From NCBI GenBank assembly GCA_965248055.1, contig CBDFIJ010000004.1, positions 2,656,001 to 2,720,000 of the forward strand: a DNA stretch of 64,000 nt. Reading direction: 5' to 3'. The stretch comes from Candidatus Multivoradales bacterium. Lineage in GTDB: Bacteria; Acidobacteriota; Thermoanaerobaculia; Multivoradales; JAHEKO01. Made by a program: the position numbers and the translations under genes. Below the pieces are notes generated by a model, which worked only from the letters and a program-made list of their open reading frames with translations, did not search any database and had not been told where the DNA came from. Positions 43,769 to 49,159 of this stretch are shown here, piece by piece (position 1 is the stretch's first letter; each line of letters starts with the position of its first letter).

Positions 43769-43852
43769 CGGCGGCTAGAATAGCGCTAGGGGGCCACAGA
43801 GTCGGTCAATTCCGGTTATTCGCCCCGGACGATCTACTCGGCCGCTTTGTCT

Positions 43853-45328
43853 ATGACGATCAGGATTCACCACCGCCCCGAGGACCTAGAGGGTCTACAC
43901 CGGCTGGCTTTGCGGTTGATCAACGCCGATAGTCACGAGGACCTTCTCAACGCGGTTGCTGAAGAAGCGATGCGGATCCTGGTTGCCGATCGGGGTCTGC
44001 TACTGCTATCGCGCTCGGAGGGCGAAGATCCCCAGGTCGTTCGTTCGTGGGGGAAGCAATCCGGCAACCACGATGTCAGTAAAGCGGTCTTGGACCGGGT
44101 GATGAGTCACGGTGAACCGTTGTTGATCGAAGACGCGCTGGCGGACGAAAAACTTGCGATCCGCGAGAGTGTGCAGCGTTTGGAGATTCGTTCCGTTCTG
44201 GCGGCTCCGCTGCGTTTTGGTGGCGAGATCTGCGGTGCACTGTATCTGGAAACCACCCCTGATCTACGCATCTACGCTGATGAAGAGTTCGACATCTTTA
44301 ACCGCATTCTTGAACTGTCTTCCCGTGCTTTGGAGGCCAACACCAAGAAGTTATTGTTGGAACAAAGGAGCTCTCTTCTGGAGCGAGATCTTCGAGCCCG
44401 CTACCGGTTCCCCGGGATTGTCACCTCGCATGGCGCCATGCTCGCGGTATTGGAGACGCTGGGTAGCGTCGCAGCCACCAATCTGGCGATCCTGATTCAG
44501 GGCGAGAGCGGCACCGGCAAAGAACTGTTGGCGCGAGCGGTGTACGTCAACAGCCGCCGCAACGAATTGCCTTTCCAGGTCATCAACTGCGCTGCGATCG
44601 CCCCGACATTGATTGAGAGTGAGCTGTTCGGCCATGTCAAAGGGGCTTTTACCGGCGCCACCCAAGACAAGAAAGGTCTAATTGCCGAGGTCGACGGGGG
44701 AACTGTGTTTCTGGATGAGGTCGGCGAATTGCCGATCGAGTTGCAAAGCAAATTGTTGCGGACGTTACAGTTTGGCGAAGTGCAGAGGGTGGGCTCGGCG
44801 CGCGCAGAAACGGTAGACATTCGTTTCGTCGCGGCGACCAACAAGCGTCTAGATCAAGAGGTCGAGGCAAAACGTTTTCGCGAAGATTTGTATTTTCGCC
44901 TGAATGCCGTGGTGTTAGAAATCCCCCCTTTGCGTGATCGCCGCGAGGATATCTTGCTGTTATTCCAACATTTCCTGCGGCGCGAGTGCGAGGTGCAGGA
45001 GCGCGAGTTGCCCGAAGTGGCTGAACAAGTAAGAGTTGCATTGGCGGAGTTTTCTTGGCCGGGGAATGTCCGGCAATTGGAGAATGAGACTTTTCGCGCC
45101 TTGGCAATGGCCGGGCAAGAACGTCGGATCGAATTTCGCCATCTGTCGCGGCAACTCAGAGGTCATCGGGTTGAAGTAACTGCGCTGGAACCATTAGCCG
45201 AAGTCGAGCGCAAAGTGGTGCGAGAACATCTGCGTCGCGCGAACGGAAACAAATCACTGGCGGCCAGAACACTGGGTTTAAGTCGTGAAGGGTTGAGAAA
45301 GAAGCTAAACCGTTGGGAAAAGGTTTAG
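43853..45328 (+). CDS. GAF-AAA+-Fis HTH sigma54 enhancer-binding protein
   Basis: GAF domain, GESGTGKE, ESELFGHVKGAFTGA, FLDEVGE, FREDLYFRL, WPGNVRQL, HTH. Confidence 0.93.
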   Translation: MTIRIHHRPEDLEGLHRLALRLINADSHEDLLNAVAEEAMRILVADRGLLLLSRSEGEDPQVVRSWGKQSGNHDVSKAVLDRVMSHGEPLLIEDALADEKLAIRESVQRLEIRSVLAAPLRFGGEICGALYLETTPDLRIYADEEFDIFNRILELSSRALEANTKKLLLEQRSSLLERDLRARYRFPGIVTSHGAMLAVLETLGSVAATNLAILIQGESGTGKELLARAVYVNSRRNELPFQVINCAAIAPTLIESELFGHVKGAFTGATQDKKGLIAEVDGGTVFLDEVGELPIELQSKLLRTLQFGEVQRVGSARAETVDIRFVAATNKRLDQEVEAKRFREDLYFRLNAVVLEIPPLRDRREDILLLFQHFLRRECEVQERELPEVAEQVRVALAEFSWPGNVRQLENETFRALAMAGQERRIEFRHLSRQLRGHRVEVTALEPLAEVERKVVREHLRRANGNKSLAARTLGLSREGLRKKLNRWEKV

Positions 45329-45340
45329 GAGCGCCCAATG

Positions 45341-45441
45341 TGCCTCTAAAGTGGGCGAGTCAGGGTGCCAACAATACGGACACTGCAGCTGAGAAGGGAT
45401 TCTTTGGTGACCACTTAGTTGGCATCCACGGTCTGTTGGCA
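45341..45441. repeat. Four degenerate 17-bp palindromes (TGCCAAC-N3-GTTGGCA), candidate enhancer
   Basis: Copies at 45341, 45366, 45408 and 45425; three have one perfect half-site. Confidence 0.6.
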
Positions 45442-45528
45442 ACTGCGGATTGGATCATTTGAGGTTGCAGTTCGTGTTTAAGTGCTTGTTGTACAGCGGT
45501 TTACCAATAGTCCAGGTTCGACTAGAAG

Positions 45529-45545
45529 TTGGCACAGCTAGTGCT
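45529..45545 (+). promoter_or_regulatory. Sigma54 -24/-12 promoter TTGGCACAGCTAGTGCT
   Basis: GG at 45531-45532 and GC at 45543-45544 with canonical 10-nt spacing; IHF-like site at ~45478-45490. Confidence 0.8.
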
Positions 45546-45555
45546 CTTACAGAAG

Positions 45556-45688
45556 GGTGAAGATAACCGTCCTCGTGTTCGGCTGAGACGGTAGGAACTT
45601 CACGGTTAGTCTGGTTCCCCCCGCAATACAACTAGATTTTCCGTCCACTCCCCAAGAGACCCGGCTCCACGCCGGGTCTCTTTCTTTT
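45556..45688 (+). ncRNA. Candidate sigma54-dependent small RNA (~130 nt, three hairpins, C-rich loops)
   Basis: Lies between the sigma54 promoter and an intrinsic terminator; stems pair by eye; no credible ORF. Confidence 0.7.
45654..45688 (+). terminator. Rho-independent terminator
   Basis: 12-bp perfect stem AAGAGACCCGGC/GCCGGGTCTCTT, loop TCCAC, T-rich tail. Confidence 0.88.
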
Positions 45689-45759
45689 ATGGCTTTCGCG
45701 AAGGGGTGTTTTCTTTCCCTGAGCAAGCCGCTACCGTTGATTTCAGGATCTAGCCCCAG

Positions 45760-46977
45760 TCAGCAAGATAATCCCAGGATCCGGATGGATGACACCGAAG
45801 TGCCTATGTCCATGGCTGTCTCACCTGGGGGGATTTCTAGCAAGCACGGAGCACTAGCGAACGCGGCCAAGTGATGCGAGCCGATCGGCACAGTGACACG
45901 GCTGCGTCCTCGATCATCGCTATGGGCTGGCAAGTAGCGGGTTTTCTCGCGGTGCGGGTAGATCGGGCTAGAGAGTTGCTGTTGTATGCGTACCTGGTCC
46001 CAGACGTCGTTATCGCCCTCCAGAGCTTTCAGCAGCGGCAGGACAAACACATGAAAACCGACGAGGACCGCTGCCGGGTTGCCAGGTAGGCCGATGGCCC
46101 ATTGCCGCTGACGCCGGGCAATCAAGATCGGTTTGCCGGGCTGCATCGCTACTTTGTGGTGGCTGATTGTGAAGCCGACTGAGGTCAACGCTTCCGGAAT
46201 CAGGTCGTAGCGACCCGCGGAGACGCCGCCGGTCGTGATCACTAAGTCCAAATCAGCGGTCTGGTCCAGCGAGCTGCGCAGAGTTTTCATTTGATCACCA
46301 ACCACGCCGAGGGCGACGGGTTCGATTCCCAGGCCATCAAGCATGCCGTGGAGCAGGGGAGTGTGGGAGTCAGCGATGGTGCCGGCTGTAAGTTCGATCG
46401 GAGCTGAACCGCTGGCTGTTACAACTTCGTTTCCGGTAATCAGTGTTCCGACTTTGGGTTTGGAAAATGCGCGAACTGTGGTCCGCCCTTCGCCGGCAGC
46501 CATGCTCAGATGAATCGGGTTCAGTCGGGTAGGTGAAGCAACCAGTGATTGCCCAGCGCTGTGGACTTCGGCTTGGCGACGAATGTGAGCGCCGCGAACG
46601 GTTGGCACTTGGATTGTCACTGTGGAATCATTGAGGAGAGTGGTCTGCTCTACGGGTACCACACGATCCGTGCCTTCGGGGAGCCAAGCTCCGGTCATGA
46701 TCGCCACCGCGCAACCGGACTCAACCACTTCTGCAAACGGAGCTCCGGCGGCAACTTCCCCGATGACCTTCAATTGCGCCCCTGGTTGGTGATCGCCGCG
46801 ATAGGCGTATCCATCCATTGCCGACACATCGGCTCTCGGGTAGTCCCAGTGCGCCTCAATTGGCGCCGCTAGGACCCTACCCAGGGCATCTTGAAGGGCA
46901 ACCTGATGGCATTCGGTTGCTGCAATATGCGGTTGGATTTGCGACCACACAAGGTGCGGTGTTGGAAGAGGTTCCAT
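45760..46977 (-). CDS. moeA: Molybdopterin molybdotransferase
   Basis: ALGRVLA, SAMDGYA, IMTGA, TGNEV, TTGGVSAG, QPGKP, GLPGNP. Confidence 0.92.
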   Translation of the reverse strand: MEPLPTPHLVWSQIQPHIAATECHQVALQDALGRVLAAPIEAHWDYPRADVSAMDGYAYRGDHQPGAQLKVIGEVAAGAPFAEVVESGCAVAIMTGAWLPEGTDRVVPVEQTTLLNDSTVTIQVPTVRGAHIRRQAEVHSAGQSLVASPTRLNPIHLSMAAGEGRTTVRAFSKPKVGTLITGNEVVTASGSAPIELTAGTIADSHTPLLHGMLDGLGIEPVALGVVGDQMKTLRSSLDQTADLDLVITTGGVSAGRYDLIPEALTSVGFTISHHKVAMQPGKPILIARRQRQWAIGLPGNPAAVLVGFHVFVLPLLKALEGDNDVWDQVRIQQQLSSPIYPHREKTRYLPAHSDDRGRSRVTVPIGSHHLAAFASAPCLLEIPPGETAMDIGTSVSSIRILGLSC

Positions 46978-47027
46978 TGAGCACAGTCTGGTTTATTGCG
47001 ATGGTAGGATCAACCACTTTTTTCGCT

Positions 47028-47855
47028 ATGACTGCAGACCCCAATCGAAGTTCAACCGCCCATGCGATTCGTTTTGAATCGGAGCCAGAATTCAGGGTGT
47101 CTCTCGGACAAAGTGGACCACCTGAGATCCTCAGCGCGATCGAACGCATGGGCTTGACCGGAGTCCTGTCGGTGAGTCGTGGTGTGACGGTGAAAGAACT
47201 GACGGTCGAGGGCGGTGAATTGCTAAATGCTGCCTCGACCGATCTCCGTGACAGTTTGGGTTCTCACCTTGAAGACTCAGGGATTCTTGATGTTGAGACG
47301 TTGGAGAGTTTTGCCGACCCGGGCAAGGCAAGGTTGAAGCTCGGTGAGAGGTTGGTTGCGGCCGACGTACTGACCCCAAGCCAGATGCGGCGCGCGATTT
47401 GTGGCCAAATGGAATCGATCGTTCTCAGTCTATTTTCGTGGCCTGATGGAGAGGCCAGTTTTCGACCTGGGCCAGTCGAGAGCCGTTCGGGAGTCGGAGA
47501 TTTGGAGTTACGGCCCTTGATCTACCAAGGGATTCTCTCGATGACAGATCCAGGGCGGATCTTGGCCATTCTGGGTGGTCCCGAACGAATCCTACGACCG
47601 GTCCATCGACCGGAGGATTCGATTCGACTCAAACTGGAGACTGACGACTGGGAGTTCTTACGTTCGGTCAACGGCGATTTAACCATTGAAGAATTGGCTG
47701 CCTCGGGACCTTACATGTACCCCGACAACTTACGTCGGTTGTATGCTTTCGCGCTTTTGGGACTGTTGGAGGTGGGCGACAAGCCTGCGGCCAGCGGTGG
47801 TGGCTCCTTCAAGGTCAAAATTAGCCGTCCGGCTTCAGAGTCCTCGGTTGACTAG
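47028..47855 (+). CDS. DUF4388 domain protein
   Basis: TGVL, LG..L, LGERLV, LFSWPDGEASF pattern; start uncertain (47001 or 47028). Confidence 0.75.
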   Translation: MTADPNRSSTAHAIRFESEPEFRVSLGQSGPPEILSAIERMGLTGVLSVSRGVTVKELTVEGGELLNAASTDLRDSLGSHLEDSGILDVETLESFADPGKARLKLGERLVAADVLTPSQMRRAICGQMESIVLSLFSWPDGEASFRPGPVESRSGVGDLELRPLIYQGILSMTDPGRILAILGGPERILRPVHRPEDSIRLKLETDDWEFLRSVNGDLTIEELAASGPYMYPDNLRRLYAFALLGLLEVGDKPAASGGGSFKVKISRPASESSVD

Positions 47856-48295: not shown

Positions 48296-49159
48296 GTGGG
48301 TAAGACGACCGTCGAAGCACGCGGTAGTGGGACACGCGGTAGCGATGCGACCGAGGTACTGCACCAAGCTCTGCACCAAATCGAGGCTGGGCGTAAGGTA
48401 GCGATTTGCCATATTCTGGAGATTCAAGGGTCGGTTCCCTGCCGACCTGGGTGGAAGAAGCTGATCACTGATGACGAAACGACATTCGGCAATTTGGGGG
48501 GCGGAGCTTTCGAAGCCCAAGTTATCGCTGATGCCCTGCAACAGCTGCAGGGCACTTCGACCGGGATTCGCGATCGTTACTACTTCACCGAGAAGGCGAA
48601 ACAGGGTTTGGCGACTGGAATGTCCTGTGGCGGTTACGCTGAGGTTTGGATCGAAGTAATGTGCGCTAGCCCGGTTTTGGTGGTCTGCGGCGGTGGCCCG
48701 GTTGGTCAGGCGCTGGCGGTGCATGGATCCTTGTGTGGGTTTGAGGTGTTGGTGGCCGACGACCGAGCTGAGTTTGCCGATCCTGAGCTTCACCCCAATG
48801 CTCAGGTTGTCGTTGTTCAGTCGGATTACCAGAATCTAAAGCTAGATCGTTTCGAGTCGCGAGATCTTTACGTTTGCGTGGTCAGTCGCGCTTGGGATGT
48901 GGATGCTGCGGCACTTCGCAGCGTGCTGGAACAAGAACGAAAGAACTTGAGATACCTGGGGCTGATGGGCAGCCGCCGAAAGATTGCCAAAGTCAAAGAA
49001 CACCTAGCTGACCTGGGGCCCGGGGTGGAGTCGATTCGAGCTCCCATCGGTCTCGCCATCGGCGGTCAGACTCCGGCAGAGATAGCAGTATCGATTGTCG
49101 CTGAGTTGATCCAGGTTCGTTATCAACCGACAGATTCTGAACCGCAGCCGTCGCCTTAG
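48296..49159 (+). CDS. XdhC/CoxI family Mo-enzyme maturation factor
   Basis: GSVP, GNLGGGAFE, GMSCGG, YLGLMGSRRK, APIGLAIGGQTPAEIAVSI. Confidence 0.9.
   Translation: MGKTTVEARGSGTRGSDATEVLHQALHQIEAGRKVAICHILEIQGSVPCRPGWKKLITDDETTFGNLGGGAFEAQVIADALQQLQGTSTGIRDRYYFTEKAKQGLATGMSCGGYAEVWIEVMCASPVLVVCGGGPVGQALAVHGSLCGFEVLVADDRAEFADPELHPNAQVVVVQSDYQNLKLDRFESRDLYVCVVSRAWDVDAAALRSVLEQERKNLRYLGLMGSRRKIAKVKEHLADLGPGVESIRAPIGLAIGGQTPAEIAVSIVAELIQVRYQPTDSEPQPSP

Follow-up and report, generated by a model that had tools for sequence, protein, structure and literature searches.

What does a sigma54-type promoter control when it lies directly behind the gene of a sigma54 activator and the next gene points the other way? 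The question is raised by a locus of about 1.9 kb, made up of an activator gene and the 430 nt of spacer that follow, in the genome of a Candidatus Multivoradales bacterium (Acidobacteriota). The locus lies in a stretch of 64,000 nt, referred to below as the window (G000:C4:2656001-2720000, where G000 denotes the window genome). The G000 assembly measures 3.41 Mb, and its main contig measures 3.35 Mb with 57% G+C. An initial annotation, made from the sequence alone, had proposed that the promoter serves a small RNA (sRNA) and no protein gene. The second half of this proposal is borne out by Pfam and by gene orientation, since the next gene, moeA, is convergent and a protein-coding target downstream is thereby ruled out. 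As judged from its sequence, the spacer probably encodes a genuine, genus-restricted and undescribed sigma54-dependent sRNA. The comparative base is formed by the two species of the genus, G000 and its sister species G001, which is the sole other member.

The same order of elements is found in G001: an activator gene, GTTGGC sites, a sigma54-type promoter, a conserved core, a C-rich loop within a predicted transcript of about 130 nt that is free of open reading frames (ORFs), a terminator and a convergent moeA. The G001 activator is 70% identical to that of G000 and is its sole close orthologue among 40 relatives. The flanks of the conserved elements have diverged, since a BLAST-level DNA search of these 40 relatives with 371 nt of the spacer gave no match and missed G001 as well. 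What has been kept in the intergenic DNA are the -24/-12 elements, a core of 26 nt, the base of the second stem-loop (SL2; ACGG...CYGU) and the start of its loop, CCCCCGCA. The core begins 44 nt after TGGCAC in G000 and 45 nt after it in G001, where the counterpart of the promoter reads TGGCACcactcATGCA. The best ungapped 25-mer of the core is identical at 22 of 25 positions in the two species, and the maximum in 60 shuffles was 18.

The predicted RNA is also marked by its folding. The 135 nt from the predicted +1 fold with -51 kcal/mol (z -4.57), and none of 200 shuffles was as good. Three hairpins had been annotated, and all the named helices exist. The first stem-loop (SL1) has an outer helix (GTGAAG at 45557 with CTTCAC at 45598) and an inner one (ACCGTC at 45566 with GACGGT at 45587), and the upper helix of SL2 joins AGTCTGGTT at 45608 to AACTAGATT at 45630. 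The terminator, in which a U-run comes after a stem of 12 pairs (8 G-C), is as strong as had been claimed and is the only one on the plus strand after the activator stop codon. The outer SL1 helix has no counterpart in G001. None of 500 shuffles was as stable as SL2, whether in G000 or in G001 (z -3.76 and -4.51); the sequence of its upper stem is unrelated between the species, yet 9 pairs are formed in G000 and 8 in G001. When a covariance model is made from just the G000 RNA and the structure derived from it, the G001 RNA is found with 38 bits (E 2e-9). On the alignment fitted to this G000-derived structure, which comprises only two sequences, both partners are changed in 10 of the 31 pairs, and 96.5% of the cells are paired, compared with 0–3 pairs in slid controls. 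A MAFFT alignment of SL2 was inconsistent with the structure and was left out of the pair counts. In the terminator, 5 of the 12 pairs differ on both sides from those of G001. Compensatory changes between the two species are carried by the stems. The RNA is present as a single copy in the G000 genome, and no conserved ORF was found in it: the longest frame from ATG, GTG or TTG in G000 has 9 codons and is not shared with G001, and none of the frames has a Shine-Dalgarno (SD) sequence.

The promoter that would drive this RNA lies 201 nt behind the activator stop codon. Its GG and GC are 10 nt apart, and 10 of the 11 specified consensus positions match by our own scoring; the consensus -12 element of sigma54 promoters is TTGC, from which the GTGC found here departs. 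The motif is present where it had been annotated. By itself it is not rare, with one match in the window against 0.81 expected by chance, so that its support comes from conservation in G001. Upstream of it, GTTGGC occurs three times within 197 nt in G000, compared with 0.11 in shuffles, and three GTTGGC/GCCAAC sites likewise precede the promoter in G001. In each species, 0 of 2000 shuffles reached three sites. The repeats that had been called enhancer-like are thus confirmed as a cluster, and they are candidate binding sites of the activator. The IHF-like site described between them and the promoter was not recovered, as WATCAANNNNTTR has no match with at most one mismatch, and the one match with two mismatches compares with 1.59 expected. 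Only a mildly A+T-rich stretch is found in its place, at 45454-45503.

The organism uses promoters of this type. Two matches to rpoN were found in G000, and 19 of the 55 chromosomal TGGCAY-N6-TGC sites are intergenic, that is, in the roughly 9.5% of the chromosome that is non-coding by crude gene calls. Most of these intergenic sites lie shortly upstream of a co-oriented gene, and it is this enrichment between genes that points to their use. The neighbouring site, at C4:2726229, is followed by a small ORF whose start resembles a signal peptide. Seven other intergenic sites were inspected by eye, five with a convergent next gene and two far from a co-oriented gene, and none combined a strong terminator with the lack of a downstream gene. 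A GTTGGC triplet together with a sigma54-like site is unique to this locus among the intergenic regions of G000. The predicted RNA may therefore be the main or only target of the activator, and the self-contained circuit that had been annotated is plausible.

Outside the window, some 900 nt in which no gene was called (locus L154, G000:C4:2125633-2126530) contain a GCCAAC...GTTGGC inverted pair and a third GTTGGC. This triplet, at C4:2125665, stands 200 nt before a weaker TGGCAC motif, and three TGGCAC motifs in all are found 200–350 nt beyond the GTTGGC sites. Neither an Rfam match nor a terminator was found in L154, which BLAST failed to recover from G001 and which may be a further target of this activator. 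At C4:3211102, a hairpin and a T-run come no more than about 50 nt after an intergenic TGGCATgggttATGCA, which may represent another very short sigma54-type transcript or the terminator of the upstream gene. Contig C2 of G000 carries a second Sigma54_DBD match. Contigs C1-C3 (15–28 kb) have 39–43% G+C, against 57% for the chromosome, and may represent plasmids or DNA of foreign origin.

The activator itself is a sigma54 enhancer-binding protein (EBP), in agreement with the initial annotation. Its AAA+ domain (PF00158, E 2.6e-64) has intact GAFTGA, Walker A (GESGTGKE) and Walker B (FLDEVGE) motifs in an alignment with orthologues, and a Fis-type helix-turn-helix domain is found at its C-terminus (PF02954, E 1.8e-11, residues 450-490). 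These are the features by which EBPs are recognised. The ORF is listed from a TTG at 43847 to 45328, and the ATG at 43853 agrees with the start in G001. As there is no receiver domain, the protein is of the one-component type. It stays below the curated equivalog cut-offs of NCBIfam, with 316.7 against 528.85 bits for NifA, the best case, 302.1 against 476 for NorR and 219.2 against 830 for the formate hydrogenlyase activator FhlA (printed ‘FlhA’ in NCBIfam). Every named EBP is missed in this way, and the protein is a generic GAF-EBP. An AlphaFold model (mean pLDDT 84.9) gave the sigma54 AAA+ activators ZraR, FlrC, LuxO, FleQ and NtrC1 as its best matches in the PDB, with TM values of up to 0.94 when normalised by target length. 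For the GAF part, no relative by sequence was found in the PDB, and the fold search is dominated by the AAA+ domain, so no hint at a ligand is obtained from it. The sole ground for calling the activator ligand-sensing is the presence of the GAF domain, which makes it a putative sensor.

Table 1. Coordinates within the window of the activator gene, of the putative regulatory elements and predicted RNA behind it, and of the convergent gene.
Feature	Position	Strand	Remarks
Sigma54 enhancer-binding protein gene	43853..45328	+	GAF, Sigma54_activat, AAA_lid_14, HTH_8 (Pfam)
Candidate activator site 1, GTTGGC	45367..45372	-	163 nt before TGGCAC
Candidate activator site 2, GTTGGCA	45418..45424	+	112 nt before TGGCAC; direct repeat D1 (14 nt, 79% identity, spacing 17)
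Candidate activator site 3, GTTGGCA	45435..45441	+	95 nt before TGGCAC
Sigma54-type promoter TGGCAC-N5-GTGCT, TGGCACagctaGTGCT	45530..45545	+	GG 45531-32, GC 45543-44; predicted +1 ~45556
Predicted non-coding RNA, ~130 nt	45556..45690	+	Both ends predicted
Conserved 26-nt core CGTGTTCGGCTGAGACGGTAGGAACT	45574..45599	+	Inner SL1 helix takes its 3' arm from the 3' part
SL2 hairpin	45602..45644	+	Base ACGG/CCGU conserved; upper stem paired in both species
C-rich apical loop of SL2, CCCCCCGCAATAC / CCCCCCGCAAUAC (G001: CCCCCGCACACACA)	45617..45629	+	Start of loop conserved
C-rich linker CCACUCCCC (G001: CCCCCAAC)	45645..45653	+	Linker as first annotated, TCCACTCCCC, located at 45644
Intrinsic terminator and U-rich tail	45654..45690	+	Stem 45654-45682, loop UCCAC (TCCAC 45666), then TCTTTTAT
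moeA, convergent	45760..46977	-	Pfam; same synteny in G001; stop codon at 45760

Taken together, the locus is rather probably a unit in which a one-component GAF-EBP drives a terminator-ended sigma54 sRNA that acts in trans. The activator would respond to a signal and bind the GTTGGC sites 95–165 nt upstream of the -24/-12 promoter, from which it would drive sigma54-RNA polymerase into a discrete non-coding RNA (ncRNA). This RNA would present its conserved core together with a long hairpin that exposes the C-rich loop. It would most likely base-pair in trans with G-rich stretches of mRNAs, probably with the help of Hfq, for which one gene match was found in G000. The activator mRNA would probably end at the terminator of the RNA, which would then be located in the 3' untranslated region (UTR) of the activator with a promoter of its own. 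The choice of the loop follows from the predicted accessibility. Its probability of being unpaired is 1.00 in G000 and 0.99 in G001, and the mean for the core is 0.41 and 0.44, respectively; because the loop is fully unpaired and the core about half paired, the loop is the most likely seed for pairing with G-rich sequence. Exposed and conserved C-rich loops are typical of pairing seeds. The linker is less constant, with an unpaired probability of 0.62 in G000 against 0.27 in G001.

A number of findings weigh against this reading. The comparative support is limited to two species, and the pair counts share both this limit and a dependence on the fitted alignment; the promoter motif, as noted, occurs at chance level. 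The 5' structure differs between the species, with only an inner CCGU/ACGG helix shared in the 5' third, and in G000 the 5' part folds no better than shuffles (z -0.08). The core is the most conserved element though it is only half accessible, and its function could be one other than pairing. The remaining points concern the targets, for which neither enrichment nor conservation was found. Translation starts in G000 show no enrichment of sequences complementary to the conserved segments, and duplexes of the loop with start regions are no better than those of five shuffled loops. The top two candidates for a loop target have no G001 orthologue at E 1e-20. A 13-nt match in the 5' UTR of a Wzy_C gene falls in the 0.6% tail of shuffles in G000 and at 30% in G001, where it is not kept.

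The more specific proposal that the RNA is an anti-SD sRNA is weakened by the same results. The SD motifs of G000 are GGAG, AGGA and GAGG at about -12 to -8. CUCC is found only in the linker of G000 and is absent in G001, the conserved C-run would leave an A·C mismatch against GGAGG, and no CCUCC-like motif is conserved. Elsewhere in the genome, perfect complements of at least 11 nt to the RNA occur in chance numbers, and blastn-short revealed neither an antisense partner nor a second copy. One target match, TGCGGGGG, was rejected as the 3' end of a repeated coding sequence that resembles an Fe-S subunit. Copies of this 3' end (...CPKGISLE.IARMNRDWVRG*) are located at C4:3284540, 3285532 and 3286188, within 2 kb, and share an identical 20-mer. 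A 12-mer complementary to the terminator loop region (GCGTGGAGCCGG; window 45663-45674) recurs at no fewer than 15 other places on contig C4, on both strands, which suggests a shared hairpin or terminator motif.

The trans-acting sRNA may be extended into a more ambitious picture, which is offered tentatively and is rather unlikely in its full form. In it, the locus would be a circuit specific to the genus: the ligand-sensing GAF sigma54 activator would have an sRNA inside its own 3' UTR as its only direct output, so that sensor, promoter and riboregulator would be combined at a single locus. The core would be a new RNA motif that acts in concert with the C-rich loop, either bound by a protein or as a second site of pairing.

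The relation between the RNA and the activator mRNA can also be turned around. From the activator stop codon to the terminator of the RNA, no other terminator is found in either species, so the RNA probably forms the 3' end of the activator mRNA, and a transcript of the activator must cross the region. The whole block could then be a cis-acting 3' UTR and terminator that governs the stability or autoregulation of this mRNA, with no promoter of its own and with the motif incidental or a non-productive sigma54 site, to which the chance-level frequency of the motif lends some weight. This is improbable in view of the promoter being kept in G001 at almost the same distance from the core, though the surrounding spacer is unalignable, and of the GTTGGC sites clustered just upstream of it in both species. 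The two functions are also compatible, as CrcZ arises from a sigma54 promoter of its own and, in addition, from transcripts that run on from cbrB (PMC8871633).

Another use for a sigma54-dependent RNA would be to bind or sequester a protein, in the manner of CrcZ or 6S RNA, with the core as the protein site. The core is the most conserved yet half-structured part, and no pairing target stands out, which would fit such a role. The exposed and conserved loop has the look of a pairing seed and speaks for trans pairing. The RNA contains no repeated motifs, and its core has one GGA; known sponges carry far more GGA motifs. The variant in which it is a CsrA sponge was rejected, as csrA was not found in G000 by a search that gave matches in three control genomes. 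On balance, protein binding is about as improbable as the purely cis-acting function.

The convergent moeA offers a different target. The promoter might drive conditional antisense transcription into it, attenuated by the structured leader and the terminator. The convergent arrangement is kept in both species, and an XdhC-family maturation factor is encoded at 48296-49159, beyond a DUF4388 protein at 46818-47855. With moeA and the XdhC-family factor so close by, a molybdenum-cofactor theme stands beside the sRNA. Such antisense transcription is nevertheless very improbable: a strong terminator of 12 bp with a U-run stands in the way in both species, the folds gave no sign of an alternative, anti-terminator pairing, no riboswitch family matches, and the RNA pairs with the start regions of moeA and of the activator no better than shuffles do.

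The core pattern (at most 3 mismatches) has exact matches in G000 and G001 only, among 45 genomes of the family and 300 of the order. Four core matches with 3 mismatches lie inside long ORFs and were rejected, as reversed-pattern controls match equally often. A covariance model (R2) run on the 45 family genomes and 151 sampled from the order likewise finds the RNA in G000 and G001 only; its weak matches in G122, G022 (two) and G044 concern the terminator alone. These genome counts take in an unpublished genome, G002, which contributes only no-match and paralogue rows. A metagenome scan with the core pattern returned 0 stretches, one with the 200-amino-acid GAF part gave 185 pattern matches, none of them a relative, and a contig scan with generic AAA+ patterns gave only paralogues of at most 43% identity. 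The locus stretch is identical in DNA contigs of four runs of one sample, perhaps the source of the window itself, which shows only consistent assembly. No Rfam family reaches its gathering score anywhere in the window, and E values of up to 10 give only fragments driven by terminators (best E 0.3–7); Pxr, Qrr, riboswitches and other families do not match the RNA.

The activator is spread more widely. After G001, its next homologues among the 40 relatives are three from other families at 50–52% identity, and the rest are at 41% or below. Activators of the same clade (47–53% identical) are found in 22 of 24 genomes of family f6 and 5 of 6 of family f2, as against 1 of 44 in the window's own family. 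In 25 such orthologue loci, each with 390 nt or more of DNA behind the gene, a sigma54-like site was found there in one only, and other DNA follows the gene. This one locus (L147 in G073, from another family of the order) has two GTTGGCGG sites and then TGGCACgctttCTGCA 233 nt after the stop codon, a layout like that of the window. Its transcript is unrelated to the window RNA and may contain a small ORF. In a protein database, six closer homologues (P0002-P0007) are 64–80% identical over the N-terminal 200 residues, of which P0007 is probably the G001 activator; named homologues of about 45% identity are labelled as metagenome-assembled genomes of Acidobacteriota or Deltaproteobacteria.

The confinement of the module to one genus, together with the other DNA behind orthologous activators in other families, would suit a chance pattern or decaying remnant, such as the promoter of a gene since deleted ahead of the terminator, or a transcript for a tiny protein, but this is least probable of all, because the 22/25 block, the loop and the paired stems are kept next to a protein only 70% identical and the 9-codon frame is neither shared nor preceded by an SD sequence.

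The wiring of the locus can be compared with that of known systems. In Myxococcus xanthus and its relatives, as is predicted for the window, an sRNA gene lies directly downstream of the gene of a sigma54 activator. According to PMC5568312, pxr lies behind the sigma54-dependent response regulator gene nla19, with a 262-nt spacer, a sigma54 promoter and a 108-nt RNA of three stem-loops. The present locus differs in its stop-to-promoter distance of 201 nt and its predicted RNA of about 130 nt, in an activator that has a GAF domain and no receiver where Nla19 is a two-component response regulator, and in its downstream neighbour, moeA in place of NADH dehydrogenase. By Rfam, Pxr is unlike the window RNA, with no family match even at E 10. 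CrcZ of the Pseudomonadaceae is much longer and has repeated A-rich motifs, which the window RNA lacks. According to PMC8871633, crcZ lies downstream of cbrB as a separate unit, is transcribed from a sigmaN promoter activated by CbrB as well as by cbrB read-through, and yields an RNA that acts by binding Hfq/Crc. Read-through is likely at the present locus too, where no terminator intervenes; CbrB is a response regulator, unlike the window activator.

LuxO of Vibrio and GlrR of Enterobacteria are also response-regulator activators. Together with sigma54 they drive Qrr and GlmY, which are Hfq-dependent or decoy sRNAs (PMC4878744 and PMC4152352), and neither family is matched by the window RNA in Rfam. 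For Desulfovibrio vulgaris, Table 1 of PMC4641369 assigns an ncRNA to the single-component regulator DVU2359 as its target and lists others downstream of DVU0653 and of DVU0679, and expression of Dv_sRNA2 (DVU0679) is reported in PMC3333781. Both the adjacency of an EBP gene and an ncRNA and a one-component EBP with an ncRNA output are already in print. They come from another lineage, concern mostly response regulators and are compared here by arrangement. A narrow literature search returned nothing pertinent on a GAF-type EBP controlling an sRNA, nor on sigma54 sRNAs in Acidobacteria or Planctomycetes.

Most of what was observed in the initial annotation is correct, and the core of its interpretation is probably correct. 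The module of activator, sites, promoter and short, terminated, ORF-less predicted transcript recurs in G001; the IHF-like site, the outer SL1 helix and the anti-SD reading found no support. The RNA itself is undescribed, and its architecture has precedents in Pxr/nla19, CrcZ/cbrB and Desulfovibrio. No general concept is changed, since the wiring is the same as in these systems. As the locus of about 1.9 kb can be moved whole into a reporter host, the signal of the activator and the targets of the RNA are directly testable. The source lineage is poorly studied and largely uncultured, and the narrow search found no sRNA literature for it. If the RNA is transcribed as predicted, an undescribed sRNA family would be added, and the locus would represent a compact one-component GAF sigma54 activator with a riboregulator as its nearest, and possibly its only, output.

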